DNA of 64,000 bases from Bacteroidales bacterium (GTDB taxonomy: Bacteria; Bacteroidota; Bacteroidia; Bacteroidales; UBA3663). The translations under genes were made by a program, and so were the position numbers. The notes below the pieces were generated by a model. It had not been told where the DNA came from and made no database searches. It was given only the letters and a program-made list of their open reading frames with translations. Positions 12,201 through 26,802 of this stretch are shown one piece after another (position 1 is the first letter of the stretch; each line of letters starts with the position of its first letter). Location of the stretch: the NCBI GenBank assembly GCA_045627785.1, contig JAZQOF010000047.1, forward strand, positions 50,199-114,198. The letters run 5' to 3'.

Positions 12201-15200
12201 TAAGCATAGAGATAGTTACCGTTACCAGCGCCATAGACATTACCAGTAATAGAGCCCGAGAGGTTTACGTTCGTGCCATTATATACAAAACCGCTGATAT
12301 CATTTCCGCCATAGACGTTGCCAATTTGACCAGCAAGAATGTTCACTGTTGCGCCGTATTCGTCTGCACCAAAAGTTTGAGGAGTCTCTGTGATATTGCC
12401 CTCGCCATCATCTGTATAAAGCGTTGCCTTCACATCACTCATACGGCAACCGCCATAGAGCGAACCGATATTAATATTGTCAGAGTCGATTGTGAGACTA
12501 AGCCCCTTTGTCTTGCCGGTAGCAGGAGAAGGGTTATAGTAAGTCATATCACCCATGTTACCACCGGAATAGACATTCTCAAGTTTGCCTTTCCACAGGT
12601 TCCATGTAGGCTGAATGGTCATCGTAGCTACGTTGTTGCCACCGAAAAGATTTACCACATGGTAAGGATCAATCTTCAAAGTGTTGTCTTCCCACTTATA
12701 ACCTGTACTCATTCCATTGAAGAACACCTTCGTCACGATGTTCTTTTGATAGTCATTGAAGGTAACATTTGCAAACTTGTTACTCTCGGCATTGGTGAAG
12801 ATATAGGTATCCTGGGTAATGGTAGCCTTGTTTCCACCACCGAAGGCACGAAGCGTAGTGCCACCTTCTACTTCCAATAAGGCTGTGGCTACGTCTGGCT
12901 TATGACCACTTTCTCCTTCTGATACCCATGCCTCTCCATTACCACCAGCGTATGCACTACCAATCATTGGAAAACCACGATCGGCAGAGTCATCATCGGC
13001 AGAGATTTCCACGTATGTATTGAACTTTTTGTTTGTAAGGCTTGGACGTGGTTTGCCATCACCATTCGGTGCAGCATTCCACTTACCTTCAGTAAACTTA
13101 GCCGGCATAGTACCGCTGATAGTACCTGCAATATCATTACCGCCATAGAGATTACATATAATAAGGTGGTTGGCATCGGTGATACCACGCGCCTTACCAT
13201 CGTATGCCCATACGTGCGCTGCACCGTGGATGTCTGCCTGACGGCTACCGCCATAGACATTATGTGCGAAACCTTCAGCCATCTCTACGAAGGTGTTGCC
13301 CTCGATGACACCCTTATAGCCACCACCATAAAGCGAACCGAGAAGCGTTCCCTGCTTACCTACTGCATAATACACGTTGGTGTTACCTGACACCGTTCCC
13401 ATATTCGAACCACCGAAGGCGTTGTAGATATAAGGGAACATACCAGCAGGATCTGCATCACCATGTGCTTCTAAGGCAATAGACTTGATATAGAGATACA
13501 CATCGCCATCAGAGTGGGTGTCGGCACCATAACCTGCACCATAGACGCTGAGGGCATTGTTGGTCTCTAGGTCGCCGGCATCGTCATAGATGTGCATATT
13601 GTCGTTCTTGTTGAAGAAGTACTTGTACTTATCATCCGTGCTGTTGGCACACTTAGGCGCGAGCCAGCAATGGTAATCCACCCATGAGTCACCCTCTATG
13701 AAGCCCGACAAGAAGCAACCGCCGAAGACGTTACCGCCATGAGCCTTGTATTCCGTCGCCTTTCCCTTACCGCTGCCATCGGTCTTTGCTAAAACCTCAG
13801 GCTCAAGAGCACACTTGAGGGTTAGATGAAGAAGGGTCTTGTCCTTGTTGGCAGAATAGAGTTTGGCCTTTGTCGCATCGTTTTCCTCTCCGTCTGAACC
13901 AGCGGTCATCGGCTCAAAGTATGATGTAGCATATTCTGCCTCATTTGCTCTTGGGTCAGCATGTACCTGATGTATATGCCTACCTTCAGGGCTGGAACTT
14001 ACACCCGTACTATTGATACTGAGTATTCCGCCGTTGAAGTTATAACGAATGATACTCTTGATATGAGCAGGATCTGGATGCTCTTCGTCCTCGTATTCCA
14101 GTCTTACATAGTCCGTACCCTGTGTCCAACCTGCAGGAACCGTAGTGGCATAATCGTAAACTCCATCGCCATTATTATCGATGAATTTACCATCGCTATC
14201 GGAGTCAAAGTAGTGATACTGCACATGAGCATTATACGCACCACCAACGATAGTATGACTCACCGTCACACCTTCTGGCAGAGTATAGTCGAACCTACCG
14301 TTCTCAAGAGTCTTTGCGCGCATTGAACCACGGAAGCCACCGCCCACGAAGTTGGCAAGCCAGATGTCTTCTGCATCATTAGGGATATTAAGGTGCACAT
14401 TATCGCTCCACACCATAATATTATTAAGGTACGCTTGGAATGGCAAAAGCTGCTGCTCTCGCGTCATTGGTTCACCCGCCTCAGAACCTACGGCAAAACC
14501 AGGATAGTATTTCTTTGCTGTATAATCAAAGAAGTGATGGTAGTAGTTGTCTTTAGTATATGCACCACTCTGCGTAGCAAGGTCTTTGCCTGAACAACCC
14601 ATAAAGAGTCCCGACACGTTCTCATCGTTGTCAATATACTTGCTGCCGTCAGCATCCTTAGCCAACTGCTCATGCGTACGACCGATGGTGACGTGTGAAC
14701 CGAGGCTGATATTAAGCGTACCACCGCCTTGGAAGTAGGCAGGGTCATCACGCACGAGGTGTGGGTTACCTGCGTATGTTGTAGTCAGCAAGGTTTTGTT
14801 CCACTCACCGATAGTGCAAGAGTTACCACCACCGAACACCTGACCAAGCACTTTCACGCGCTCGTCCTTTGTATTTCCTTCAAGCGTAAGGTTTACACCG
14901 CCGATTGTCTGCGGACGACCTACGTATGTCTTTCCCTTTGGACCATCATCTGCCGAATGATCCACCATGAAGTAGTTGTCATCACCGTGCGTTCCCAAGT
15001 CATACCTCAAAGCACCAGGGATATAATAGCCGATGTGGTTCCCGTTGCCAGCGCCATAGACATTACCCTTAATCTCACCTCCATAGATGGTAAGCTGTGC
15101 GATACCATTGACAGTTCCCGACACATCATTGCCGCCATAGACGTCGCCATAGATGGTAATCTTGTTCTGGTGCTGATCGTAAGTGTAGGAGCGAAGTTCT

Positions 15201-17542
15201 TTATTTGCTTCGTCAATGAACTTAGAGGTTGAGTATCTGTCAGTTCCGTTGGCATTCTTGCCTGATGTCTGCAAACCGATAGTTACATTTGTTGCAACCT
15301 TTGTAGAAGCACCTGCAGCATGAATATTACCCATCACAGCACCGCCATAGACATTCTCCAGAATGGTACCACGAGTAATGTCGAGATTCGTGCCTGCACA
15401 AGGCGCATAGTAGCCACCGCCATATACGAAGTGTACCAGCGACTGTGGGTCGTTACCCACATGCACATTGCACGTTCCACCCACCGTACCATTCAGTCCA
15501 CCACCAACGATACTGTGCAGGCCAGTACCCTTCTGGAGGTTGATGTCGCAATAGGCATTCTTGGTAACTGTTGCCTTGTTACCAAAACCGCCGCCAAAGA
15601 CAGAGAAGTGAGGCTTTGCCACATTCTCGATACACTCCTTGTAATAGTCGGTAGTTGCGAAGTTAGCCGGTGCTGTTGGTGCACCCACCATATATACGTG
15701 AGCATTTCCCTTTACGTCACATGCCATATTACCACCGCCATAGAGATTGTGGGTGATATCGCTCTCGGTGTTGCGCTTGTCACCAGCACTACTCTGGTCA
15801 AGGAATCGGCCAGTGACCTCGTTTGTCATCTCCACATCAGTAGCTGTTGATGGCAGGAACTCACGTGGTTTCCAATATTTACTATACTCAAGGTCTGCAT
15901 TCTCGAAATACACGTATGTATTTCCATAGATATCGGCAGAGGTTACGTCAGCGTCTCCTGTGCCTGGGTCATCACCGAAGCCACCGCCGAAAATGTCCTT
16001 TGCCACCATACCGTTGAGGACCGCCACATTGGTACAGCCATCGATGATGCCAGTAGCCATCGTTCGTCCTGATTCACCTTTCGATGCAGCGATTGTCTGA
16101 CAATTGAACACTGTACCCATATTACCACCGCCATAGACATGACTCCACACCTTAGTACCATTGAGCTCGACATTGGTGCTACCACAGACAGTACCTACGA
16201 ACATTGACATCGTCATCTGTGCCTTCGTACGACCATTGCCGCCACCGAAAGCACTACCGAGGATGTTACCGCCGTTGAGTTTTAGGGATGTAGTGAAGTC
16301 GAGTGTGGCAAGGCTCTTGTTCTGTTGTGCCACATGATCGGTCATTGTTGGGCGAGCGTTTTCGTTGTACCAGCCAGTATTAGCAATATCACCGCCACCA
16401 TAAACGTTACCGTAGATGATGGTAGTGTTGCCGCTGATGGTTACATCCGTCTCGCGCATCACTTGCGCGGCGTAGGTGTACGGCATCAAAACCTTACCTC
16501 CACCGTCGAAAGGACTATCTATTTCGTCCTCAGCCTCAATACCGGCACCACCACCGAAGACAGCACCATTGTAGAGTCCGCCCTGGATATCTACCTTCGT
16601 AGCACCATATACAGCACCTACATAACTATTAACGCCACCAGTAGCATCAGCACCTGACTTAGAACCCAATCCTCCACCAAAGACATTAAAGACAAAAGGC
16701 TGTCCCTTGATGGTTATGTTTGTCTGAGAGGTATAAGTCGTTTTGTCATATTTGATGCCACCGGCTCCAGCGTTGGCTGTAGCGTCGTATGCACCTACCG
16801 TACCATCGAAACCACCACCGAACACTGACGGAACGAACTGCGCAGACAGTTTAGTGTCCGGCTTCAGACGAAGACCGAGGCGGTCGATAGCCTCCAGTTC
16901 GGCATGCGTAAAGGCAACACCATCAGCAGGTTTGATGTCGGCAGTACCGGGGATATTGATGTTGATATTCGTATTGCCGGCCACATCAGTATGTGCACCA
17001 TAACCAGCACCGAACACCGAACAGATAGGTATCTTTTGCTGGTTCGGCTTCATAGAGTTGTCGTAGAAGTGGCGCCAAGCAGCCATAGCACGTTTGTCTG
17101 ATACAAAACTATAGGTAGTGATTATACCCTTCGTCATCTCGACATTAGTGTTTCCTGTCACATTACAAGCCAAGTTGCCACCACCGTATATATTACGCAG
17201 GTTATTCTCGTCACCAACGGTATAGACAATCTCGCCATCGTTGATAGACACACTGGTGCTTCCACTAATATCTGCCGAGGCTTTGACATCACCAATCTCG
17301 TGTCCGCCTCCGGCCTCAGTATAGAGTGCACCCTCGCCACCACCGAAGATACTACCGGCCAGCTGACCAGCATTGATGATCACGTTGGTGTTACCAGCTA
17401 CTTTCGCCATCTCACCACCGCCATAGACATTGCCACGGATCTGGATTGCACTCTTCGGCTCCGGGGAGGATTGTGCTTTAGTTACTTGGACTACTCCTGA
17501 CAGCAACAAAACTATGCTGTATATTATATATATTCTTTTCAT
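6203..17542 (-). CDS. giant secreted repeat protein (3779 aa): signal peptide, [FY]GGG-type beta-helix-like repeats, T9SS C-terminal sorting domain; candidate pilus-associated adhesin
   Basis: An uninterrupted 11.3-kb ORF with an ATG start overlapping the upstream stop (ATGA). The N-terminus MKRIYIIYSIVLLLSGVVQVTKAQ is a signal peptide. There are dozens of GN.YGGG....G.TNV..-like units. The C-terminus resembles a T9SS CTD. Confidence 0.9.
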   Translation of the reverse strand: MKRIYIIYSIVLLLSGVVQVTKAQSSPEPKSAIQIRGNVYGGGEMAKVAGNTNVIINAGQLAGSIFGGGEGALYTEAGGGHEIGDVKASADISGSTSVSINDGEIVYTVGDENNLRNIYGGGNLACNVTGNTNVEMTKGIITTYSFVSDKRAMAAWRHFYDNSMKPNQQKIPICSVFGAGYGAHTDVAGNTNININIPGTADIKPADGVAFTHAELEAIDRLGLRLKPDTKLSAQFVPSVFGGGFDGTVGAYDATANAGAGGIKYDKTTYTSQTNITIKGQPFVFNVFGGGLGSKSGADATGGVNSYVGAVYGATKVDIQGGLYNGAVFGGGAGIEAEDEIDSPFDGGGKVLMPYTYAAQVMRETDVTISGNTTIIYGNVYGGGDIANTGWYNENARPTMTDHVAQQNKSLATLDFTTSLKLNGGNILGSAFGGGNGRTKAQMTMSMFVGTVCGSTNVELNGTKVWSHVYGGGNMGTVFNCQTIAASKGESGRTMATGIIDGCTNVAVLNGMVAKDIFGGGFGDDPGTGDADVTSADIYGNTYVYFENADLEYSKYWKPREFLPSTATDVEMTNEVTGRFLDQSSAGDKRNTESDITHNLYGGGNMACDVKGNAHVYMVGAPTAPANFATTDYYKECIENVAKPHFSVFGGGFGNKATVTKNAYCDINLQKGTGLHSIVGGGLNGTVGGTCNVHVGNDPQSLVHFVYGGGYYAPCAGTNLDITRGTILENVYGGAVMGNIHAAGASTKVATNVTIGLQTSGKNANGTDRYSTSKFIDEANKELRSYTYDQHQNKITIYGDVYGGNDVSGTVNGIAQLTIYGGEIKGNVYGAGNGNHIGYYIPGALRYDLGTHGDDNYFMVDHSADDGPKGKTYVGRPQTIGGVNLTLEGNTKDERVKVLGQVFGGGNSCTIGEWNKTLLTTTYAGNPHLVRDDPAYFQGGGTLNISLGSHVTIGRTHEQLAKDADGSKYIDNDENVSGLFMGCSGKDLATQSGAYTKDNYYHHFFDYTAKKYYPGFAVGSEAGEPMTREQQLLPFQAYLNNIMVWSDNVHLNIPNDAEDIWLANFVGGGFRGSMRAKTLENGRFDYTLPEGVTVSHTIVGGAYNAHVQYHYFDSDSDGKFIDNNGDGVYDYATTVPAGWTQGTDYVRLEYEDEEHPDPAHIKSIIRYNFNGGILSINSTGVSSSPEGRHIHQVHADPRANEAEYATSYFEPMTAGSDGEENDATKAKLYSANKDKTLLHLTLKCALEPEVLAKTDGSGKGKATEYKAHGGNVFGGCFLSGFIEGDSWVDYHCWLAPKCANSTDDKYKYFFNKNDNMHIYDDAGDLETNNALSVYGAGYGADTHSDGDVYLYIKSIALEAHGDADPAGMFPYIYNAFGGSNMGTVSGNTNVYYAVGKQGTLLGSLYGGGYKGVIEGNTFVEMAEGFAHNVYGGSRQADIHGAAHVWAYDGKARGITDANHLIICNLYGGNDIAGTISGTMPAKFTEGKWNAAPNGDGKPRPSLTNKKFNTYVEISADDDSADRGFPMIGSAYAGGNGEAWVSEGESGHKPDVATALLEVEGGTTLRAFGGGNKATITQDTYIFTNAESNKFANVTFNDYQKNIVTKVFFNGMSTGYKWEDNTLKIDPYHVVNLFGGNNVATMTIQPTWNLWKGKLENVYSGGNMGDMTYYNPSPATGKTKGLSLTIDSDNINIGSLYGGCRMSDVKATLYTDDGEGNITETPQTFGADEYGATVNILAGQIGNVYGGNDISGFVYNGTNVNLSGSITGNVYGAGNGNYLYAYDKTGEHVTSDIAEVWNTELNDNVYWIPGKAEASPIEQLVSLTNIRPHVSKAYLNIQGQGEDNKVYIFGSVYCGGNASTIRAAGDGLGEAHVKFNIGDNVIVNEVFMGSNGESMKYDANGTSNYLVNFEKINGLDFSTDMTDDYWSELLEFYGMSSASDERKALVKSIYPNLLSIYMSAVDMQAMPLGFTEFSGHTFQNTWIGTFCMGGNAGSMMTEQPVDIVFPQSLNFFGRIIGGSKDASFQYKGKWHRGGFRMPVASDATLDYQPTKTKLRMKIRGDWYSRRMNMDPKYKNAVANEAPVGDYLVYDKTDNGVDWKVDGKAWHDGCNVYGGCYQSGDMVGDVQIYIESDMLAYSRYLHGQIGVTIDDYKEPSLDESNKLNLPVANVYGAGYGPESRSFGDAYIYMKDIPNAEGWIHPSVNNIFGGGRNGMLVGNSVIHVHDGLVYKDVVGGSFAAPMYGSAQVTVGYPKFYVCKQSGEYFIDRADKWNEDYQTKGNGKTESVIKKSIKYFEGTYVPCNVYDQITEVKLHGSETITPLSSIHTATRQNNDYFEFHDEGNNPDDTSIFPTGGWNSVEIRVRGGVYGGGFSLSNSTAAIAGSYTTLASTETYNHGVDSQGNSSVGYGGNSSIIISDLGSGKDHIKISTETTKKDEHGNVVGEYTGVGGIYGDGRLVFCEGFRAAELNGYGYAGTTPSDPLMLNSLQRLDLLTVNDCCFKLYGDEDFATDEINKRKYSLARIGELRMNSNIDPTGTYATDWTTLQSRNYIGFYNTIHYIGAIVTNDDFHSGKFHDAAGALQDAYTYRSKKQEYITNYYASDKLETATNAFKQRNYATARNMIGINSGFSLHVENLYYEGDEHKTYNGPIVGVAEVKLLNVQPGEGGGYVYADNVHADTYDKEHPETATFMNESGNFVFEGVVRPGESTKQYIVDDCLPKGFDECGGVLPEQHYWYVIGDTYYYHATLTAFSFKTKKEFDLSTADPNVIFAGIEKSWDVSLQSVKWLEAETPDASSKYWRDIRGGRDDALTSLDGSDVKYQFTLQVGDNSNSQPLWSNEMPRSTTDAEQITSQTWTAYNNTNTTPRFNVHLIDNVNNCPLNEEEEYYNNHLSVPENVQLIIKARKLDGKTDTNGEPTYEYKTYNVTLEIVYIQGPSFTGNVNIMNCALPGERIGFNSNGIQIKTTDQLPVTGFEWKLVPLKDDLSEGTYSWDESKGKIIPASFTTTSAEGYSQGSVPALYSQNHWNVYYVFRAGGEDFVVAPTTTDTDPLNKRMLVVHNYHKMADITADNYNVTLAAGEGNIYAKALKPGAMIYLADDADIAAFVSYVNGGNNGEGLNFYLQNDLTLLSAITNTFAGTLHGNGYSLTLPSAGGSLFGDKLAGKVYNLGVPNGTIASSGIVTNCFTNSDNANELKYGEKAYALSHYFKTTDSNDGYVHTLYANNDGMGGDWRYARVTDIYENARFLRTGAPNYGNMQTNHNTEHAGDYTLTEHDCLFFGQHLDKTNADAYPVHIDEAFSVKWVEANRVYQTVGYYQSKAEQKFHYNKDAWALQPTLTAIDFTKMTAEGDDTTTLPETFSVDSNKDYNATTGHVSQNLLVYNAGETVFDKKNEADIAEKDVVYHNIVKNAEVFSTDYFHLVDKQDFNAPIAFNVNKRAWYERYPQKYRNLIDTDNNNLVDYNSSSAWEGICLPFTATKVTAEKNGEISHFYGEIPTGEGAVNDRTLHHEYWLTGMVAANGDKATFARPAVSGEGLFVETNQATAKRDYTYQANDYFTSLFNYNDWYDTRDDEDDDTMGYHDKAWYAQSHTFTDYVPLTAAVPYIVAFPGDDFYEFSMESYYKTDAYGSEKYNQKATFESGPTTIKVSDDNAVSTTANGYTHFGTFLHKDSQLGINNAGSAFVSYENILPFRTYMTSPTRTRSIWINSTGENMTDMKEDLDDEGLKIWNEGLVIVVKTKEARSLNVFTADGAWLGILHCDAGTNRFQMDAEGIYLVGNTKLLLKN
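6206..6400 (-). other. T9SS (Por) type-A C-terminal sorting domain of the giant protein
   Basis: The last ~62 aa read GLKIWNEGLVIVVKTKEARSLNVFTADGAWLGILHCDAGTNRFQMDAEGIYLVGNTKLLLKN. The pattern (V.V.D..G......G.N......GIYLV....K....K) parallels known CTDs such as RgpB. Confidence 0.7.
10180..17440 (-). repeat. protein-level degenerate ~20-25 aa repeats with [FYV]-G-G-G/N core (predicted parallel beta-helix rungs)
   Basis: By eye there are about 18 strict [FY]GGG and more than 40 relaxed cores (VYGGGEMA, IFGGGEGA, VYGGNDVS, VYGAGNGN ...), often followed by G.TNV.I. Confidence 0.75.
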
Positions 17543-19659
17543 TCGCCTATAGTCACATTTGTATCGCCTGTTACCATTGCCTTGTTAGGATGTCCTTCTT
17601 CGCCCTGTCCTGCACCAAACACGTTACCGTCGATGATACCACCGAGGATGGTGACGTTGGTGTTGCCTTCTACTGCACCCTTGGCTCCGCCGCCGTAGAT
17701 GTTGCCGGTGAAGGTCCAAGATTCATTTGGACCTGTGAACTCTGGAATGTTAGGGTCAGCCCAAGTTGCTCGTGGTTTGAGAGTCTTTGGTTCAATCGTT
17801 ACTTTGGTGTTGCCATAGACTTTGGCGATATTGAGGAACTCAGTTTCTGCGCCCACTGCGCCTGTGGCTGCTACACCAGCACCGCCACCGTAGATATTGC
17901 CTGCTATAGAGCCACCATAAATGTTGACATTGGTATTGCCATAAACGGAGGCCACGGTGAGGAAATCTTTTTTCTTGTCATTAGCTGCCTTTGTATAGTA
18001 ATCGGTAGCACCAAAACCGCCGCCATATACGCCACCTCCTATTGTACCGCCATATACGTTTACATTGGTTTCACCCCAGAGAGAGCCAGCACCTGCCATT
18101 GTTACTGATACGTCCATTTCTACAGAATAACCATAACTACCACCGTAAAGACCGCCTTTAATGGTTCCACCATAGATATTAAGTACCGTAACGGTTTCTG
18201 CAAGATCTATTTCCTCATTCGCTTTGTACATGCTTGATATAACCTTGGTGATGGTCTTGCCTGCATCGTATGGTTGATATTTGATGCCCATGAAAGGATA
18301 TTTTGCGTTTGCTGTATTATCAACATACGGTATGTACTGGTCATTGGTGTTGTATTTGCCATCAGGACTTTTGAGTCCGCTTATACCTCCAGCAGATACG
18401 AACGCACCAGACTCAATTGTACCTCCGAACATATTCAATGTGCTATGTCCGTAGAATGCAGCATTGACCATACCTTTTGTGTTAGTACCAAGCGTAGCAC
18501 GACCAAGACAAGCAGCGTAATAACGTTGAAGGGTCACATCCACATCGTTTTCGGGGATTATGTTAGTAACTGTACGACCAAAGAAAGAGGAGTTAGAAAG
18601 TCCTGCATCTTTGGTTTGTTCAATGGACATACCCTGCATAGCTCCTACAAGGGTAGCGATCTTACCACGTTTGATATTGAATTGTACATCGCAGTACTCT
18701 GCACCTTGCGTCATGCCGGCACAAAGGAAGGCGATGTCATCTTTATCTTCTTTACCTCCGCGAGAGTTCCAAGCACCGGTAGAAGTCTCGGGATCAACAT
18801 CAACATTCACCACACACATAAGCGGATGGCTTGGGTTGCCGATTACATAACGTTTTTCAATGTCACTTTTATTAGTACCAGTGATACGATTACTCAGAAT
18901 TCGACCGAACTTGCCAGATTTGATGGTAAGCGTTACTGGCTTTGTTTGTGCCGGCCAACCTCCATCGTTAGAAGATGTGCTGAAATTATACGTGTTAGCA
19001 AATAAGAATACCTGCATGTCTGGTGCTCTTCGTCCAGAAGTTGCACCATTGGTTGTGGTTAAGTCAGAAGAAATATCCATCACGCATCCAACGTCAAACA
19101 TGCAGTCGTGCAGATACATTGACAAAAAAGCAGAAGCACCTCCAAAACGGACATACTTGAACTTTGTATCCGCTCCAATGCGAGTAGTTCCTTTATCGAC
19201 AGTACCGTTATGAGCACTTGAATTCAGATACACTCTGCCACCTGCCTTTACCTTGGCTGCTGTAGTATTATCTGCATCCCAAGGCCAAACACCTGTGATG
19301 GTGGCAGGAATACCATTGGTACCATTTCCTTTGGCTATGGTTTCGTCTATAAAGAGGTTGCCTGATCCCTGTGCATTACGAACCACAATAATATTGCTAT
19401 CCCAGGCAGCATCGCGGTCGGCATCGGTGGTGCCTGTGTAGGCAGGGAGCAGTTTATAAGCTTGAGCCCATGTCTTTACTGCATTGGCCTCTGTCGAACC
19501 ATCTTTCGAGTCGTTACCCTCACCAAGCTTCAGATACACCACGTTATAGGTCTCATCCACGCCATCGCTGTCGTAGTCGTGATATTCAATTCCTGCCCAC
19601 GCCGCATTCACGCAACCCAGGAGTGCTATCAGGAGTATGTATATTCGTTGTTTCATCAT
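17539..19659 (-). CDS. secreted YGGG-repeat protein (706 aa), paralogous in its C-terminal third to the giant protein; no T9SS CTD
   Basis: Signal peptide MMKQRIYILLIALLGCVNAAWA. The C-terminal third has units such as NIYGGTIKGGLYGGSYG, VNVYGGTIGGGVYGGGFG, NIYGGSIAGNIYGGGAG and GNIYGGGAKGAVEGNTNVTI. Confidence 0.85.
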   Translation of the reverse strand: MMKQRIYILLIALLGCVNAAWAGIEYHDYDSDGVDETYNVVYLKLGEGNDSKDGSTEANAVKTWAQAYKLLPAYTGTTDADRDAAWDSNIIVVRNAQGSGNLFIDETIAKGNGTNGIPATITGVWPWDADNTTAAKVKAGGRVYLNSSAHNGTVDKGTTRIGADTKFKYVRFGGASAFLSMYLHDCMFDVGCVMDISSDLTTTNGATSGRRAPDMQVFLFANTYNFSTSSNDGGWPAQTKPVTLTIKSGKFGRILSNRITGTNKSDIEKRYVIGNPSHPLMCVVNVDVDPETSTGAWNSRGGKEDKDDIAFLCAGMTQGAEYCDVQFNIKRGKIATLVGAMQGMSIEQTKDAGLSNSSFFGRTVTNIIPENDVDVTLQRYYAACLGRATLGTNTKGMVNAAFYGHSTLNMFGGTIESGAFVSAGGISGLKSPDGKYNTNDQYIPYVDNTANAKYPFMGIKYQPYDAGKTITKVISSMYKANEEIDLAETVTVLNIYGGTIKGGLYGGSYGYSVEMDVSVTMAGAGSLWGETNVNVYGGTIGGGVYGGGFGATDYYTKAANDKKKDFLTVASVYGNTNVNIYGGSIAGNIYGGGAGVAATGAVGAETEFLNIAKVYGNTKVTIEPKTLKPRATWADPNIPEFTGPNESWTFTGNIYGGGAKGAVEGNTNVTILGGIIDGNVFGAGQGEEGHPNKAMVTGDTNVTIGE

Positions 19660-19694: not shown

Positions 19695-20717
19695 TTAATT
19701 AATTGTCAAGTGTTTATTATCATGCTCTGAGAGCACATAAAGGTAATCAGGATTGATTGTAATTGTCAGATCGTAGTACTTGCCGGCTTCAAGTGAACTG
19801 ATAGGATCATTAAGAGATTTAAGCGTGACCTTATTGGTGGCGGTAACGCCTTTGCGAGTAAGATGTGCTGCAGAAATGTCATCTTTGTCATAGATGTCGT
19901 ATGTACACTTGAATGTCAACTCACTGCTGGTAGTAATTCCACCATCGCCTGTAGTGCGGATATATGCACAGGCATAAGGCGTAGCTGAACCGGACAACTT
20001 CATGCCAGGAAGAGGGTTTTCCGAGGTTCCTCCCACATTGGCATCGTTACCCAGAAGCAAGGTCTGATCATTGATTGTGACCTCACGTAGCACAATATCG
20101 CGAATCTGCAAATACTTATTACTTACCACAAACTTTAGACGGAGCAAAGCTGTGCGATGCTTGAGTGTAAAGAGCAGGTGATCTCGATAATTTTCATTAA
20201 CGGGATATCCTGTTGCATCGCTTGACATATAATCACATGCACCGATGGCAGGTATGTTGGAGAACGATAAGAGTATATTACTCGCAGGTTTATCTGTTGC
20301 ATTTCCATTATCCAGCATATAATACGCCACCATTCCTCCTCGGCGAGCATCTCCGCGTGAGATTGGGCACTTTCTCAGTTCTTCGTTCTCCATTGAGAAA
20401 AACTTATGATATGGCTTATACCCGTCAGGTTCCTTGCTCGTCTCAGGGGTTTCTTTAGAATCATTTTTGACGTAGAACATTTCTTTGTCAGGCACATTGA
20501 TGCATATCCATGCTGGTGTTGGAGTCGTGATAATTCCACTCAGGAAGTCAGGCAAAGCTCGTGTATCATTCCCTGCACGTCCATCTAGCCACGTTGAAGT
20601 GACCATGATGGAGAGCGGAGCTTCTTCATCAAGAAATTCTACATGCTCGTCAGTGCAACCGGCAGACAACAATGACGCAGCAAGAATGATGTATTTATTA
20701 AAGAATTTGATTCTCAT
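19695..20717 (-). CDS. type-V-pilin-like lipoprotein (accessory/tip candidate)
   Basis: The ATG at 20717 gives MRIKFFNKYIILAASLLSAGC (lipobox). It has GRA/TRA Arg-Ala sites at aa 46-54 after a short strand (LSIMVTS). Confidence 0.6.
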   Translation of the reverse strand: MRIKFFNKYIILAASLLSAGCTDEHVEFLDEEAPLSIMVTSTWLDGRAGNDTRALPDFLSGIITTPTPAWICINVPDKEMFYVKNDSKETPETSKEPDGYKPYHKFFSMENEELRKCPISRGDARRGGMVAYYMLDNGNATDKPASNILLSFSNIPAIGACDYMSSDATGYPVNENYRDHLLFTLKHRTALLRLKFVVSNKYLQIRDIVLREVTINDQTLLLGNDANVGGTSENPLPGMKLSGSATPYACAYIRTTGDGGITTSSELTFKCTYDIYDKDDISAAHLTRKGVTATNKVTLKSLNDPISSLEAGKYYDLTITINPDYLYVLSEHDNKHLTIN

Positions 20718-20745
20718 TTTTATTATTTGCGTTTGCAAGCAGCAA

Positions 20746-21951
20746 TTACCAGTTAGTCCATTGGTCAGAAGTGCTACCACCAGACTGCCATTCTGTTATG
20801 TTGGCATCGACGAAAAGCAAACCGCCTTCAAGTACCTTGAAAATATATGTGTACTGGTAATTGGGTTTCCAGTGCATGTAAGCGGATGGGACGATAGCCG
20901 TCTTGGGCTCAGTATCACCATCAACGTTTACAGAGAACTTATAGTCGGGAGCGGTGACATCAGTACCTGTTGGAAGGACGTAGTAGAATGTTTGATTATC
21001 CTTATTGGATTCTTCTGCGTCTTTTGGATAAGCTACAGCGGCAGTGTTTGATGCACAATTCTCAGAAGTGAGCTTTAGTACTTTGCCACTACCTGCTATT
21101 GAGGCATCGAAACCCTTGAATTCGAATTTATCGAGATAAGACTCAGTCTGAGAAACTATGCTGTAAGACTCAGAATTTTTGTCAGAAAGAGGATAAGTGA
21201 CGTTGATTGTGGCTGATTTTACAATCTTCGGTTCTTCAACGTTAGGTCCGAACGAAATATCAGTAAGTTCGATAGCATCGCCTTCGTTACCATCTTGTGG
21301 CGCTTCGAGTTTTTCTCCTGAATAAACCATGACACGAACCTTGGCGTATGGTCGTATGAATTCCATTTGTACTACTTTCCCGAAATCTCCTTTTGGAACT
21401 GTCTTCAAAGATGAAATATAATAGCCAGTCTGTTCGGTTATTCCAAGCAGAAGTCCTTCAATCGTTAATGTCTTTCCATCATTAGTAGGAGATATTTTAT
21501 CGTCGTTTTCAACATATCCCCAATAACGGTATTCGTTAGCAGAATAATCCCAATACTTGATTTCCTGCTTTATATTATTTATTGAAGTTCCTCCTACATA
21601 AGAGAAACCATGTGAATTATCTTCCGATGTTTCTGATGAATTATCAGAATACTTTACATTATAGCCATTGAATACAATCTGTGAAGAATTATCAGTTTTT
21701 ATCTTATATCCATATACAACAAAGTCTTTATCTAGAGCTTTCGATGCGCGAGTGTTTGCGCCCGCACGCGTAGAAGAAATCTCTTCTTGCAGGATTGAGG
21801 AAAATGACACAGCTGCATGCTGCTCCGGAGTCGGATCAGGTGTTGGTGTTACTTCTATGTCTGGCTGTATGATGCCATTAGGATCATCGTTGTTGCATGA
21901 AATGGCAAGCATTGCAGAAAAAGAGAGTATATATGGTATGTAACTTTTCAT
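20746..21951 (-). CDS. fimbrillin-family (type V pilin) lipoprotein
   Basis: Lipobox MLAISC and TRA sites at aa 61-63 and 67-69. It shares IKYWDYSA and WKPNY.YTYIFK motifs with the 580-aa neighbour. Confidence 0.7.
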   Translation of the reverse strand: MKSYIPYILSFSAMLAISCNNDDPNGIIQPDIEVTPTPDPTPEQHAAVSFSSILQEEISSTRAGANTRASKALDKDFVVYGYKIKTDNSSQIVFNGYNVKYSDNSSETSEDNSHGFSYVGGTSINNIKQEIKYWDYSANEYRYWGYVENDDKISPTNDGKTLTIEGLLLGITEQTGYYISSLKTVPKGDFGKVVQMEFIRPYAKVRVMVYSGEKLEAPQDGNEGDAIELTDISFGPNVEEPKIVKSATINVTYPLSDKNSESYSIVSQTESYLDKFEFKGFDASIAGSGKVLKLTSENCASNTAAVAYPKDAEESNKDNQTFYYVLPTGTDVTAPDYKFSVNVDGDTEPKTAIVPSAYMHWKPNYQYTYIFKVLEGGLLFVDANITEWQSGGSTSDQWTNW

Positions 21952-22064: not shown

Positions 22065-23807
22065 TTACTGAACCTTGATTACCTTAACGTAGTTTTTTGA
22101 ACCGTCGGTGTACTGGAATACATAGGTCTTGCCCGACGCCACAGTAAATTTGCAAGCAGAAACAGCAAGTGTATTACCATCTGAGGCAGGAACTTCACTT
22201 ACTAATTCATAACCACATGAAGCCAAAGTAATGCCAGTATCATGCTTACTTCCATTCAACTGATCCTGTACAAGAGTCTCTGTAATAATCTTTGGATCTG
22301 TTGCTGTAGCAATATAAACAGCGACACCAGCAGGAGCAGTGAGTGAACTGAGATCAACCGCAGTAGTCTTATTCATTACAGAAGCATAAATATCACCAGC
22401 CTTATACTCGTTACCTGAAGTTACTACCTTACCAGCCTGATAAGTTGTAATAGAAGGAGTAGAAACTGTTGTAATAGTCTCCTGAATGCCGTCCTCGGTA
22501 TCCACTACGACAGCATCGAAGGTGATTGGTGTGAGACCCTGAACAACATTTCCAGAACCATCAACACCTGTCCACCCATTAGTAGCATCAGAAATCTTGA
22601 AGATGTAGGTGTATGCATAATTTGGTTTCCAGTCAGCATAAGCAGCAGGAACTACAGCACTTGCATCACGAACGTGAATTGTCTCGTCAGAGCCATCAGT
22701 AGATACAAGATCATATTCGATGCGAATCTGAAGATTGTCCTTTGTTCCAAGAGGAAGGACGGTCTGATAGTAATTGTTTGAGGCAGCACCTGCATAAGTA
22801 GCTGTATTAGAAGTACGGCCAAGATAATCTCCGTCAGCTTCAGAATCATCTTTAGTCTCTTTGTAGTCAAGTGTACCAAAAGTCATTGTCTTTACAAGTG
22901 CATCTCCTGTTTCACTACCAGCAGCAAACTTGACGTGAGCCAGGTTATAGTCAGAACTCAATGTTCCATTTGAAGAATTTGCCCAACCAACGGTAGGATA
23001 GTAAACGCTCATCGTACCCTTAGAGGTTGCTGATGGGAAAACTTTACTTGCGGCAAAGAGAGTTGCTTTGTCTTCACCTACAGTTGTAGTCTTCGAGCCA
23101 TCCCATGCGGCATTATAGAACTTAACATTCTTTACAGAGTATCCAGGAACAGTCTCATATAATGCGACACGAACCTTAGCACCAAGACTGCGGAATTTAA
23201 GAGTTACAGTCTTTCCAAACTCACTAACGCCATCACGATTATATACTGTTACGAGATCCGCAATATATGCAGAAGCAAGTTCTTCTGCTGATCCCTTTAG
23301 GGTATATACAGCATCAGATGTGCCAAGTTTGGTATAATCAATTTTTGAAAGAGTTGCAAAGGTTTTTTCTGTTGAAGAAGTACTCGAAACACCAGTACCA
23401 TACGAGAATCCGACAAAGTCATACTGTGTTGCTGAATAGTCCCAATACTTGATATTCTGAGCAGAGGCACTAGAAAGAGTATGTTTTGTTTGGCCGACAT
23501 ATTCCCAACCAGCTACGTTTGTCTCTGTTTTATTTGCGCTATCTTCAATATAGTTTACATTATAGTGGTCAAAGACCTTAGTTTTAGTAGAACCATCACC
23601 CTTGATACCCATAACAACGAAATTGTTATTGAGCAATCCTGCAGCGGTCGACCCTTCTGCACGTGTTTGCGCCTTTGTACCAGAGTCAAAAAGAATCGGC
23701 TTATCACCATTGATGGTGTGCTGAGCTTCTTCCGAGCCTAAAAACTCATTGTCAGCACACCCCGCTAATAGCAAGGCTGACAAAGAAGTTAATAAAACTT
23801 TTTTCAT
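22065..23807 (-). CDS. fimbrillin-family (type V pilin) lipoprotein, candidate major/stalk subunit
   Basis: Lipobox LLLAGC and TKAQTR|AEG at aa 44-52. It shares motifs NIKYWDYSATQY and YADWKPNYAYTYIFK with the 401-aa paralogue. Confidence 0.7.
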   Translation of the reverse strand: MKKVLLTSLSALLLAGCADNEFLGSEEAQHTINGDKPILFDSGTKAQTRAEGSTAAGLLNNNFVVMGIKGDGSTKTKVFDHYNVNYIEDSANKTETNVAGWEYVGQTKHTLSSASAQNIKYWDYSATQYDFVGFSYGTGVSSTSSTEKTFATLSKIDYTKLGTSDAVYTLKGSAEELASAYIADLVTVYNRDGVSEFGKTVTLKFRSLGAKVRVALYETVPGYSVKNVKFYNAAWDGSKTTTVGEDKATLFAASKVFPSATSKGTMSVYYPTVGWANSSNGTLSSDYNLAHVKFAAGSETGDALVKTMTFGTLDYKETKDDSEADGDYLGRTSNTATYAGAASNNYYQTVLPLGTKDNLQIRIEYDLVSTDGSDETIHVRDASAVVPAAYADWKPNYAYTYIFKISDATNGWTGVDGSGNVVQGLTPITFDAVVVDTEDGIQETITTVSTPSITTYQAGKVVTSGNEYKAGDIYASVMNKTTAVDLSSLTAPAGVAVYIATATDPKIITETLVQDQLNGSKHDTGITLASCGYELVSEVPASDGNTLAVSACKFTVASGKTYVFQYTDGSKNYVKVIKVQ

Positions 23808-23848: not shown

Positions 23849-25042
23849 TTAATCTTTTACGTCAAATTCATGTGTTTCATCTACCCACTCCTGAACTACT
23901 GCATCGAAACCGGAACCGCCGTTACGACCAGGAGAGCGGATAGTGTCCATATCCAATTCAACTGTGATCACACCACCGCGGAAACGTCTGATGACCTGAT
24001 CGGTGACATCGAAGTAGAGTGTCGAGTCATTACCGTTACCGAATATCAAATTGACATCCATGTAATGTCGCTGATTTCGTATCTGTTCAGGTATCTGAAG
24101 ATGATAGCGGTAGTCAAATGGATTGATGCCTCGTATTCCGAATGTTGTCAGACGACCTCCTACGATATCGACCTCCTCATTGCGATGCGTGTCATAAACA
24201 TTCTGTTTAAGGCGAGTGTTGTAATGTACTGCAACAGGATCGTTGCCTGCAATGCCTGTGTTGAGTGTTGTCGAATAGGCAAAATTCGACAGGTTGGCAT
24301 TACCATCTGTTCCTACAACCTTACCCCAGTTGTGATGAATGATAACCTGTGTGAGGTAAATATACACCACAGGATTCAGGAGCATGTCTATATATTTGTA
24401 ATATGTATCATGCACTTCGTCGTAATAATCATAATCCTCGATATTCTTGCTGATATAGACTTTCTTTTTTTCGGCAGCATATAGCTCTTCCGGCTGGTTG
24501 TATGCATAAGCTCGTGTAGAGTGATAGCGTGTGCCGTAATTTGTTTCATTCGTGTAAGCTGTAATCGAGTCAAGTGTTGTCTCTTCGTCGATTACAATGC
24601 TCTGAGCGACATCCCGTGACTCTATCTCGTTATAGACGAGGAAATCGTAATAACCGAAGTTATAAGTCGATGTGAACGAATGACCGTGTATCTGATCTCG
24701 TAATACTGTTGTATGCTTTGCCAACGTGTCGTGTCCGAGATAATAGCGGCGTATATTGAAGTCCTCAGGTAATGTGTATCCGATAGGACCGAAAAGAAGG
24801 CTGTCTGTTTCATCCCATCCGTAACGCCATTCCTTTCGCCAATCGTAAACTGTATCGTAGCCGAACTCGTACAGGAGATCGTAGTTCCAGACGACATCGA
24901 AGTCAAGAACTACTTTCGGAAATTTTACATCGATGTCAATCTCTTCGCGAAGATGCAATGGTGGAATAGGATCACAACCTCCTATAATACTAGTGAAGAG
25001 TAGCGCAACGGTAACATACATGGCACGCAATAGCTGTTTCAT
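23849..25042 (-). CDS. lipoprotein (DUF5119-like from memory), candidate pilus anchor/assembly component
   Basis: The ATG at 25042 overlaps the upstream stop (ATGA). Signal and lipobox read MKQLLRAMYVTVALLFTSIIGGC. It occupies the position after the DUF3575-like gene, as in Bacteroidales fimbrial loci. Confidence 0.5.
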   Translation of the reverse strand: MKQLLRAMYVTVALLFTSIIGGCDPIPPLHLREEIDIDVKFPKVVLDFDVVWNYDLLYEFGYDTVYDWRKEWRYGWDETDSLLFGPIGYTLPEDFNIRRYYLGHDTLAKHTTVLRDQIHGHSFTSTYNFGYYDFLVYNEIESRDVAQSIVIDEETTLDSITAYTNETNYGTRYHSTRAYAYNQPEELYAAEKKKVYISKNIEDYDYYDEVHDTYYKYIDMLLNPVVYIYLTQVIIHHNWGKVVGTDGNANLSNFAYSTTLNTGIAGNDPVAVHYNTRLKQNVYDTHRNEEVDIVGGRLTTFGIRGINPFDYRYHLQIPEQIRNQRHYMDVNLIFGNGNDSTLYFDVTDQVIRRFRGGVITVELDMDTIRSPGRNGGSGFDAVVQEWVDETHEFDVKD

Positions 25043-26496
25043 CGCAGATCTCCTTTCTTCTTCATTTTTCGATAGAAGATATCGTACGACAAAGTGATGC
25101 CGATGCGTGTTGGACCTAACCATGTGAACAGATACTGACGTTCCTTGAAATCCTTCGCCTTGCCTTGCCAGTCATAGTAATATAGCTCGTCAATATGACG
25201 ATCGACAGGATCTCCATAGACGTATGGATCGTATTTAGTGCGGAAGTACCCGACCTGAAAGCCGACTTCGAGTCGCCAATGATGCTGATCGGTCCAGAGG
25301 TGCCCGTCTGGCATACGTACTGTTTCGCGTTTCTTGCCGAGTCTCCATACATAACCTGCACCAACGCCGCCGCCCCAGCCTTCGCCTTGCCAACCTTTGA
25401 CATCGGTGAAGCCGATACCATACTTGGCAGCATTTGCATAAGCCTGTACATACCATCCACGGAATGAGCCGCTCTCCTGGAAGTAACGACGGGTTTCGAG
25501 CTGCCAATTGCGTATCTGGAAATACTTATGTTGTTTCTGCTTGTTCTGCCACCAAGGAATGTCGAGCGATGCACCGTATGTCCAATGTCCCTTGAGCGGA
25601 TAATATTCGAGTTGGATGTTCCAGATAGGAGCGAACCCGTACTGAGGAACATATGCCACATCCTGAAGCAGGTTTGTCTTGAGAGAAAGCCATTCGCGAC
25701 GCACGTTGTTCTTGACAACAGGCTTTTCGTATCTTGCCATCTCTCGAAGTTCGGTCGGTATTGTCACGCCAGGAAGATCCAATGGCTTTGACTGCAAAGG
25801 TTTGATGCCAAGATCCATCACATCACCGGCTTTGTTCTCTGGAAAGATGATCATGAAGCGTGATGCTCGGAGACTTGGGAAGTATTCTGCCTTGATGCGG
25901 TTCCAGAGCTTACCGCCATTGTAATTCATCAGGCGATTCTTGAGGGTTACAGGATCTTTGATTCCGGTAGCCACCATCTTGCTGACCAATTCTGCTTCCG
26001 GGTCTTTGGCTTGTCGCATCATGAAAGCCAGTAGTTGGTATTCCTCATCGACTACGTCAATCTGGAGTTCCGAGGCAGATACACCATGTTCCTGGAATAT
26101 CTTCAGAAGTGCATCACGGCGTCCTTTGCTCAGTCGTTGGTTGAGTTCAAGCGATCCTTCCGGTGAGGCTGCACTACGGATGCGGATGCGGGCATTGCGG
26201 ATATTCTCGCCATTGAGCAATGGCACAGCGTAACGTATAAAATGTTGGAGTTCCCGATTATTGGCATCAATTGTAGTGCGTCCTGCCGAGAATACGATTG
26301 GCAATGAACGCATAAAGAAAAGTGAATCGACTTCTAACGCATCTCTATTGGCATCTTCAGCAAATATTATGTATGACGAGACGTTTAGAGACTTCTCTTC
26401 CGGAGCCAAGAGTTTCTCACCCTTGGTTACACTGGTCAGTAAAGTCAAGAACATACTGGTCAGGATTAGTAGATGCTTTTTAGCAAGATTCTTCAT
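25039..26496 (-). CDS. DUF3575-like outer-membrane beta-barrel protein with N-terminal OmpA-like (ASPEGS) segment
   Basis: It has a signal peptide. SAASPEGSLELNQRLSKGRRDAL is an OmpA-like signature. The C-terminal half starts LSLKTNLLQDVAYVP and has alternating aromatic/Gly strands, typical of DUF3575. Confidence 0.65.
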   Translation of the reverse strand: MKNLAKKHLLILTSMFLTLLTSVTKGEKLLAPEEKSLNVSSYIIFAEDANRDALEVDSLFFMRSLPIVFSAGRTTIDANNRELQHFIRYAVPLLNGENIRNARIRIRSAASPEGSLELNQRLSKGRRDALLKIFQEHGVSASELQIDVVDEEYQLLAFMMRQAKDPEAELVSKMVATGIKDPVTLKNRLMNYNGGKLWNRIKAEYFPSLRASRFMIIFPENKAGDVMDLGIKPLQSKPLDLPGVTIPTELREMARYEKPVVKNNVRREWLSLKTNLLQDVAYVPQYGFAPIWNIQLEYYPLKGHWTYGASLDIPWWQNKQKQHKYFQIRNWQLETRRYFQESGSFRGWYVQAYANAAKYGIGFTDVKGWQGEGWGGGVGAGYVWRLGKKRETVRMPDGHLWTDQHHWRLEVGFQVGYFRTKYDPYVYGDPVDRHIDELYYYDWQGKAKDFKERQYLFTWLGPTRIGITLSYDIFYRKMKKKGDLR

Positions 26497-26549: not shown

Positions 26550-26557
26550 CAAATTTA
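26550..26557 (-). promoter_or_regulatory. -7 box TAAATTTG (minus strand) for the pilus-like operon
   Basis: The reverse complement of caaattta matches TAnnTTTG. It lies 54 nt upstream of the ATG at 26496 and 3 nt from the homopolymer. Confidence 0.45.
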
Positions 26558-26560
26558 CCA

Positions 26561-26576
26561 TTTTTTTTTTTTTTTT
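26561..26576. repeat. T16 (A16 on the operon strand) homopolymer
   Basis: Counted directly: cca + 16 T + ctgt. Confidence 0.95.
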
Positions 26577-26680
26577 CTGTAAGAAAAAACCATAAATGTG
26601 GCGCTGGTATGCTTAAAAACATGTTTTTGTAACTTTTTGTACAACAAATAGTGTAGATTTAGCGCAATTTTTTTTGGTAA

Positions 26681-26714
26681 CTTTAAAACAAAAACGGGAC
26701 TTCGAAAAGTCCCG
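26681..26714 (-). terminator. rho-independent terminator of tRNA-Val
   Basis: On the minus strand, cgggactt-ttcg-aagtcccg is followed by tttttgtttt. Confidence 0.65.
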
Positions 26715-26727
26715 AGGTATAAGGTTG

Positions 26728-26802
26728 TGGTCGCTGACGGATTCGAACCGCCGACCCTCTGCTTGTAAGGCAGACGCTCTGAACCAGCTGAGCTAAGCGA
26801 CC
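26728..26802 (-). tRNA. tRNA-Val (anticodon TAC)
   Basis: A 75-nt cloverleaf with acceptor GGTCGCT/AGCGACC, anticodon stem TCTGC/GCAGA, loop CTTACAA and T-loop TTCGAAT. Confidence 0.9.

Follow-up and report, generated by a model that had tools for sequence, protein, structure and literature searches.

A total of seven open reading frames on the minus strand, with spacing from -35 nt (an overlap) to 113 nt, follow a single promoter region in the window, by which we mean the whole 64,000-nt stretch of DNA that was analysed. The promoter region of this seven-gene pilus cluster, which belongs to an uncultured Bacteroidales bacterium of the gut, contains a run of 16 adenines at 26561-26576 on the minus strand (T16 on the plus strand). 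The features of the locus are listed below in their order along the minus strand.

26727-26802, minus strand: tRNA-Val(TAC), the upstream neighbour, found with Rfam; it lies beside the operon in the window species only
26695-26714, minus strand: terminator-like hairpin and T-run after tRNA-Val, the upper limit of the promoter region
26608-26622, minus strand: block ATGTTTTTAAGCATA, a candidate activator or UP-like site, 65 nt upstream of the -7 box (start to start)
26561-26576, minus strand: A16 homopolymer, a hypermutable tract according to the comparison of same-species alleles
26558-26560, minus strand: TGG, joining the tract to the -7 box; some strains have TAG here
26550-26557, minus strand: TAAATTTG, the putative core promoter of the operon, which fits the sigma-ABfr -7 consensus TAnnTTTG
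25039-26496, minus strand: gene 1, a 485-aa DUF3575 protein with a signal peptide (PF12099, E 7.7e-13)
23849-25042, minus strand: gene 2, a 397-aa lipoprotein with a predicted type V pilin fold (Mfa2/FimB-like anchor class; DUF5119)
22065-23807, minus strand: gene 3, a 580-aa lipoprotein with no family match
20746-21951, minus strand: gene 4, a 401-aa lipoprotein with a faint match to Mfa_like_1 (fimbrillin-like; E 0.03, below the cut-off)
19695-20780, minus strand: gene 5, a lipoprotein whose real start is likely an internal ATG near 20720
17539-19659, minus strand: gene 6, a 706-aa secreted protein with no family match
6203-17542, minus strand: gene 7, a 3779-aa secreted protein; its first 4 nt are shared with the end of gene 6

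Analysis of the encoded proteins supports the assignment of the cluster to the type V pilus-type operons, with the fold evidence coming from a structural model of gene 2. The start of gene 2 was placed at 25042 (397 aa) and not at the start of the mechanical ORF 23849-25123 (424 aa), because the gene calls in all related contigs and an ATGA overlap with the gene 1 stop codon agree on it. The match of its product to DUF5119 scored 25.5 bits, just under the 27-bit cut-off, and relatives in Prevotella and Prevotellaceae carry the name DUF5119. An AlphaFold model built from a 55-sequence alignment reached a pLDDT of 83.6, compared with 27.5 for a single-sequence run. Foldseek matched this model to Bacteroides 'putative adhesins' of the pilin family (5cag, 4qdg and 3pay) and to Mfa2 of P. 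gingivalis (5nfi), with E values from 5e-14 to 5e-7 (5cag, 4.9e-14; 5nfi, 4.8e-7). These pilin-fold matches are the reason for regarding the locus as an operon of the type V pilus type. Inspection by eye found, in genes 2-5, an N-terminal signal peptide ending in a Cys lipobox-like motif. Profile searches returned no significant family match for genes 3-6, and NCBIfam gave zero matches for any protein of the operon. Gene 7, which closes the operon and is its largest gene, encodes a Gly/Thr/Asn-rich protein with a signal peptide; it had no Pfam match (a faint GEVED hit only) and no match in NCBIfam or among PDB sequences, and self-BLAST revealed no internal repeats. The pilus label given to the locus in the earlier note is thus supported by the solid DUF3575 match, the Mfa2-like fold of gene 2 and the lipoprotein signal peptides. 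For gene 7 the label of giant adhesin went further than its size and signal peptide, the two features behind it, can carry.

Read on the minus strand, the promoter region has the order ggttttttcttacag-A16-tgg-TAAATTTG-catgat, and the ATG of gene 1 at 26496 lies 54 nt past the last base of TAAATTTG. The gap between tract and box is 3 nt, and the homologous loci have a TAnnTTTG at the equivalent place. The -7 consensus of Bacteroidota sigma-ABfr is TAnnTTTG (PMC7366714), and TAAATTTG is the sole occurrence of this pattern on the operon strand between the tRNA-Val terminator and the ATG. Canonical promoters of the window, among them the tRNA-Val promoter, were found by eye to have a -33 TTTG 19-20 nt upstream of the box. 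No TTTG occurs at 19-20 nt in the operon promoter, where the position reads ACAG, and none arises there at any observed tract length. Since A16 plus TGG amounts to exactly 19 nt, the tract fills the whole spacer. The earlier note had described the layout exactly as it is found (A16, tgg, TAAATTTG and the ATG 54 nt downstream) and had linked the tract to the spacer between a -33 and a -7 element; this idea needs qualification, given the missing TTTG.

The length of the tract is not due to chance. A/T runs in the 64-kb window (45% GC) top out at 8 nt (four runs) and the next length to occur is 16 nt, represented by this tract only; the next-longest homopolymer of any kind is likewise 8 nt. An uninterrupted repeat of about 9 nt or more is long enough for slippage, and A16 exceeds this length. 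The same locus was found with a long tract in independent assemblies of other samples, and the tract is therefore not an artefact of one assembly. A second run, A8 on the operon strand (T8 on the plus strand), occupies 26668-26675 between the tRNA terminator and the upstream block; it reads A7, A8, A9 or TA6 among same-species contigs and is constant in contigs L008-L010. An 8-bp perfect palindrome, TTTTTTCT-TAC-AGAAAAAA, at 26569-26587 on the minus strand overlaps the 5' end of the tract; as a single-stranded DNA structure it was rejected, its folding being no better than that of shuffled sequences (z = -0.48). The T-run of the plus strand was likewise rejected as a terminator, since no GC hairpin precedes it and no gene converges on it.

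Tract length within the species was compared using the 97%-identical gene 1 cluster P0001 (40 members), from which nine contigs of different sequencing runs were taken. Together with the window these contigs (L007-L015) form a same-species set of ten sequences. An exact look-up of the gene 1 protein found no record of the window's product, and an alignment-based scan of metagenome contigs confirmed zero relatives. The homologues are nearly all from Logan or ENA, with one from JGI among the 120 matches listed, and all tract lengths are consensus calls from short-read metagenome assemblies (Logan, ENA). The alleles are as follows.

A16+TGG: window, L008 and L009
A14+TGG: L010
A19+TGG: L014
A13+TAG: L007
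A14+TAG: L011
A15+TAG: L015
A9-T-A4-TTAG (interrupted): L012
A8-T-A4-TTAG (interrupted): L013

Comparison of the closest strains revealed length differences in sequences that are otherwise identical. L008 and L009 differ from L010 by no substitution in 3088 aligned nt, A16 versus A14 being the sole difference, and L012 differs from L013 by no substitution in 3212 nt, one A in the tract being the sole difference. Length polymorphism among close strains in these short-read assemblies is above background mutation. As far as consensus sequences can tell, these pairs show that A:T pairs are gained or lost in the tract far faster, by orders of magnitude, than substitutions arise nearby. The earlier note had named an invariant tract across strains as evidence against a phase switch; lengths from A13 to A19 were found, and the hypothesis survives.

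A scan of species-representative genomes identified six homologous loci with 46-73% protein identity, all in metagenome-assembled genomes of Bacteroidales, and further sister contigs were drawn from a protein collection. The tracts in these sister lineages are poly-T on the sense strand and lie in the same promoter region at differing positions.

L003: T17+CG+TATATTTG
L006: T20+CG+TAAATTTG
L018 (89% identical to L006): T18+CG+TAAATTTG
L017 and L021 (one 90% protein cluster): T18 and T16, respectively, each 24 nt upstream of TAACTTTG
L002: T16, further upstream
L001, L004, L005 and L016: runs of 7-9 nt only

Close relatives among the sister lineages also differ in length, as seen for T20 and T18 (L006/L018) and for T18 and T16 (L017/L021); in the latter pair 41 substitutions were counted in 2700 nt and the tract provides the only indel. 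The non-redundant family DNA (118,434 nt) has six runs of at least 10 nt; all six lie upstream of the DUF3575 gene and five of them fall between the upstream block and the -7 box. Unrelated metagenome DNA (774 kb) has nine A/T runs of at least 12 nt, and a -7 box follows none of them within 40 nt. The tRNA neighbour is absent in the other lineages (L001-L006, L016-L018 and L021), whose genomic contexts differ, so the regulatory region goes along with the operon whatever the genomic surroundings; this hints that the operon and its promoter block move as a unit. Two further contigs from an L006/L018-type species, L019 (positions 1-90) and L020 (1-58), start just a few nucleotides past the -7 box. 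These assembly breaks near the expected T-tract could reflect mixed tract lengths or low coverage.

Alignment of six lineages anchored on the -7 box revealed the upstream block, ATGTTTTT[G/A]AGCAT(G), as the best-conserved part of the region. The block is kept in the window, L002, L006, L017 and L018, weakly in L016, and it was found once in the window. The distances from block to box, measured start to start, are as follows.

63 nt: L007, L010 and L018
64 nt: L011, L013, L015 and L021
65 nt: window, L008, L009, L012, L006, L002 and L016
66 nt: L017
69 nt: L014

The distances cluster at 63-66 nt with a mode of 65 nt in this small set of phylogenetically related sequences. As a conserved spacing the 65-nt mode is suggestive, the few related sequences falling short of statistical proof. 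L002 and L016, lineages without a long tract here, have a block-to-box distance of exactly 65 nt, and compensating lengths were found between L017 (T18 plus 24 nt) and L002 (T8 at the same place plus 33 nt), with near-equal totals. Because the tract lies between block and box in the window species, in L006/L018 and in L017/L021, slippage must change the distance between them.

The sister promoters also contain motifs near the canonical -33 position. L003 has a TTTG 22 nt from the box, which a tract of T14-15 would bring to canonical spacing, and L017 has a -33-like CTTG at 20 nt, directly next to its tract. The counterpart in the window, CTTA, stands at 19-20 nt only with A13-14. A16 gives the family-typical 65-nt spacing and A13-A14 would instead give the canonical position of CTTA, so that more than one length may be the optimal or 'ON' state on the evidence of sequence.

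Overall, our analysis makes it rather probable that the A16 tract is a slipped-strand contingency element that tunes or switches a type V pilus operon from within its promoter. Transcription would start a few nucleotides downstream of TAAATTTG. A promoter without a -33 TTTG presumably relies on contacts upstream of the tract, made at an activator site, a UP-like element or a -33-like element. Each 1-nt change in the tract would shift the distance between such a site and the -7 box and turn their helical phase by about 34 degrees per bp. We infer from this arrangement that tract length affects transcription: differing lengths would lead to differing promoter output, either graded (a rheostat) or ON/OFF, with clonal heterogeneity in piliation as the outcome. 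The presence of poly-A in this species and poly-T in the sister lineages fits a role in spacing at the level of DNA and argues against an RNA-level or sequence-specific role. The operon encodes surface-structure genes, which are the usual targets of such switches. The length differences described here are strain-to-strain polymorphism, and as such are not proof of rapid, reversible switching within a population.

A static structural role for the tract is the main alternative. Binding of RNA polymerase could be helped by rigid, AT-rich poly(dA:dT) that acts as a spacer or UP-like stretch, and changes in its length would then be neutral within the observed range. The -33/-7 spacers of B. thetaiotaomicron are AT-rich and of variable length (PMC7366714), and tolerance of spacing may accordingly be high. 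Consistent with a static role, related promoters without a long tract keep runs of T6-T9 in the same region, and many lengths (A13-A19) coexist in nature. The interrupted allele of L012 and L013 points the same way, since it means that a perfect tract is not indispensable. Against such a role, perfect homopolymers of 16-20 nt are otherwise absent from the 118 kb of family DNA, and point mutation would soon erode the tracts if perfection were not favoured. Four or five lineages nevertheless keep unbroken tracts of at least 16 nt at differing positions and with differing polarities, and the block-to-box distance of about 65 nt, together with the compensation between L017 and L002, argues that length matters. 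Overall, we regard a purely static role as unlikely.

The second alternative holds that the length differences are artefacts of short-read sequencing and assembly and that the tract really has one fixed length. Every allele was read from Illumina-type metagenome assemblies, in which homopolymers of at least 14 nt are known to be miscalled; since long A/T homopolymers are error-prone in short reads, differences of 1-2 nt, such as some of those seen here, could be partly technical. The L019 and L020 contigs, moreover, end near the tract. This explanation is nonetheless very improbable in view of the wide range of lengths (A13 to A19, plus T16 to T20 in the other lineages) and the independent recovery of A16 in the window, L008 and L009. 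The nearby A8/A9 run was called consistently in L008-L010, and its uniform reading within this clone group indicates that the assemblies handle moderate runs reliably. Alleles also differ in linked SNPs (TGG versus TAG, and the interrupting T), which are not slippage errors.

We also consider it very doubtful that the true promoter lies upstream of the tract, in which case the tract would be transcribed as leader and act on RNA, for example through an effect of a poly(A) leader on translation or stability. The position of the transcription start is a prediction from sequence, which leaves room for this explanation, and Bacteroidota mRNAs lack a Shine-Dalgarno sequence and have A-rich leaders. 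On the other side, there is no second TAnnTTTG between the tRNA terminator and the tract. The sister tracts are poly-T on the sense strand and would give poly-U, which is incompatible with a conserved role at the RNA level. An RNA element was rejected as well, Rfam showing the tRNA alone.

Switching by DNA inversion, with the tract as an incidental feature, was examined by searching for inverted repeats and recombinase genes. The best pairs in the inverted-repeat search were 10-16 nt long with 80-92% complementarity and spanned the tRNA or lay inside genes. The flanking genes were scanned out to 6 kb past one end of the operon and 10 kb past the other, and no recombinase turned up; they are housekeeping genes, with products that include peptidases, a nucleotidase, amidotransferases, radical SAM enzymes and an oxidoreductase. 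Inversion is the usual mechanism in Bacteroidales, where Tsr-mediated promoter inversion controls type V pili of Bacteroidaceae (PMC12940148) and global invertases can act in trans (PMC12632263), as one encoded elsewhere in this genome conceivably might, yet with no inverted repeats bracketing the promoter, no nearby recombinase and the same promoter orientation in 10 of 10 same-species contigs, an inverton was rejected here and this explanation is extremely unlikely.

The preferred reading, a promoter tract whose length varies by slippage, was compared with known systems. Promoter homopolymers that phase-vary surface structures are known from Neisseria, Haemophilus, Bordetella, Helicobacter, Campylobacter and Mycoplasma (PMC11868660). 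The T-tract in the sabA promoter of H. pylori has been proven experimentally to act as a rheostat (Aberg et al. 2014, PMC4081817). The sabA gene encodes an adhesin, its tract varies in length by slipped-strand mispairing, and several promoters share the design. Both sabA and the present locus have an intergenic A/T homopolymer adjoining a core promoter element, and the T16-18 tracts of L017/L021, which abut the -33-like CTTG, have nearly the same layout as sabA. The two systems differ in host and in promoter type, with a sigma-ABfr -7 box here and sigma-80 -10/-35 elements in sabA. Furthermore, the window tract fills the -33/-7 spacer whereas the sabA tract lies upstream of the -35 element.

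Homopolymers inside the spacer are represented by the vlp genes of M. hyorhinis, where the effect of changes in a homopolymer in the -35/-10 spacer has been proven experimentally (Citti & Wise 1995, as cited in PMC2268961). The vlp genes encode surface lipoproteins; the homopolymer lies between their two core promoter elements, and transcription goes ON or OFF as bases are inserted or deleted. The maa2 gene of M. arthritidis and vmm of M. mycoides have spacer homopolymers like those of vlp. Both hexamers, -35 and -10, can be recognised in the vlp promoters, unlike the pilus promoter, which lacks the -33 TTTG. The vpma promoter of M. agalactiae has a poly-T just upstream of its -10 region, and site-specific recombination had been proposed as its switch (PMC2268961); a homopolymer beside a core element is therefore no proof of a switch.

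Length also sets spacing in the poly-C promoter tracts of fim2/fim3 in Bordetella pertussis and the poly-G/C promoter tracts of porA/opc in Neisseria. These tracts separate the -10 element of genes for fimbrial or outer-membrane proteins from an upstream activator or -35 site. They consist of G/C and have a known activator (BvgA), in contrast to the A/T tract and the candidate block found here. Both fim2/fim3 and porA/opc are listed among the phase-variation systems based on simple sequence repeats (SSRs) in PMC11868660.

In the literature searched, phase variation in Bacteroidales is described only as inversion (PMC11868660, PMC12632263, PMC12940148). Invertons control capsules, SusC/D proteins and type V pili in this order (PMC12940148, PMC12632263), and the type V pili of Phocaeicola vulgatus have an inversion switch (PMC12940148). 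The present system shares with invertons its target, namely type V pili and surface structures of Bacteroidales, and its presumed purpose (bet-hedging in the gut). It differs in that repeat length varies and not orientation. The words 'slipped' and 'homopolymer' are absent from a 2025 review of Bacteroidales, and a literature search of incomplete coverage found no SSR or slipped-strand switching in Bacteroides, Prevotella or Bacteroidales. The nearest lead is a passage of PMC13183296 that mentions a 'putative phase variation mechanism' for the FSD genes of Ornithobacterium hominis. A slippage-type promoter dial thus appears to be a known kind of switch that is undescribed in this taxon and promoter type.

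The set of genes called phase-variable in the gut microbiota is at present defined by inverton finders. If homopolymers switch pili in gut Bacteroidales, these tools miss part of the repertoire, and homopolymer variation in promoters is also routinely blurred by short-read assembly. We tentatively extend the interpretation, at a little below even confidence, to homopolymer-length switching as a recurrent, lineage-wide control of type V pili in an uncultured Prevotella-like clade of gut Bacteroidales, in which A/T tracts of 16-20 nt would have expanded independently between block and -7 box and changed the spacing. On this extended reading, if true, it would constitute the first SSR phase-variation system described in Bacteroidales, an order thought to rely on DNA inversion, and also the first SSR switch in a promoter of the sigma-ABfr (-33/-7) type. 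The locus offers a testable case, with named alleles in an identical background, a natural series from A13 to A19 and a predicted optimum at 65 nt, and it provides a handle on the activation of Bacteroidota promoters without a -33 element.

The combination of block, gap and -7 box was also used as a pattern to scan metagenome contigs. A total of 120 matches were found, with an apparent peak at 63-65 nt. The peak came mostly from redundant copies of a few human-gut loci, the enrichment after de-duplication was weak and the downstream genes were unrelated, and the block is accordingly not put forward as a general element. The form ATGTTTTT[AG]AGCAT occurs 63-65 nt before TAnnTTTG at unrelated genes (a lipoprotein and unknown proteins) in several families of gut-metagenome contigs. 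The first family comprises L066, L071, L072, L075, L081, L083, L108, L112 and L139, in which the distance is 64 or 65 nt according to whether a run reads A6 or A7. Other block-bearing contigs are L023, L059, L069, L073, L079 and L115, then L046, L060 and L113, and also L034. Just past TAACTTTG, in the putative 5' leader of an unrelated Bacteroidales-like human-gut locus, a poly-C run was observed as C8 in L030 and C6 in L042 and L109, and it may be another length-variable tract beside a -7 box.
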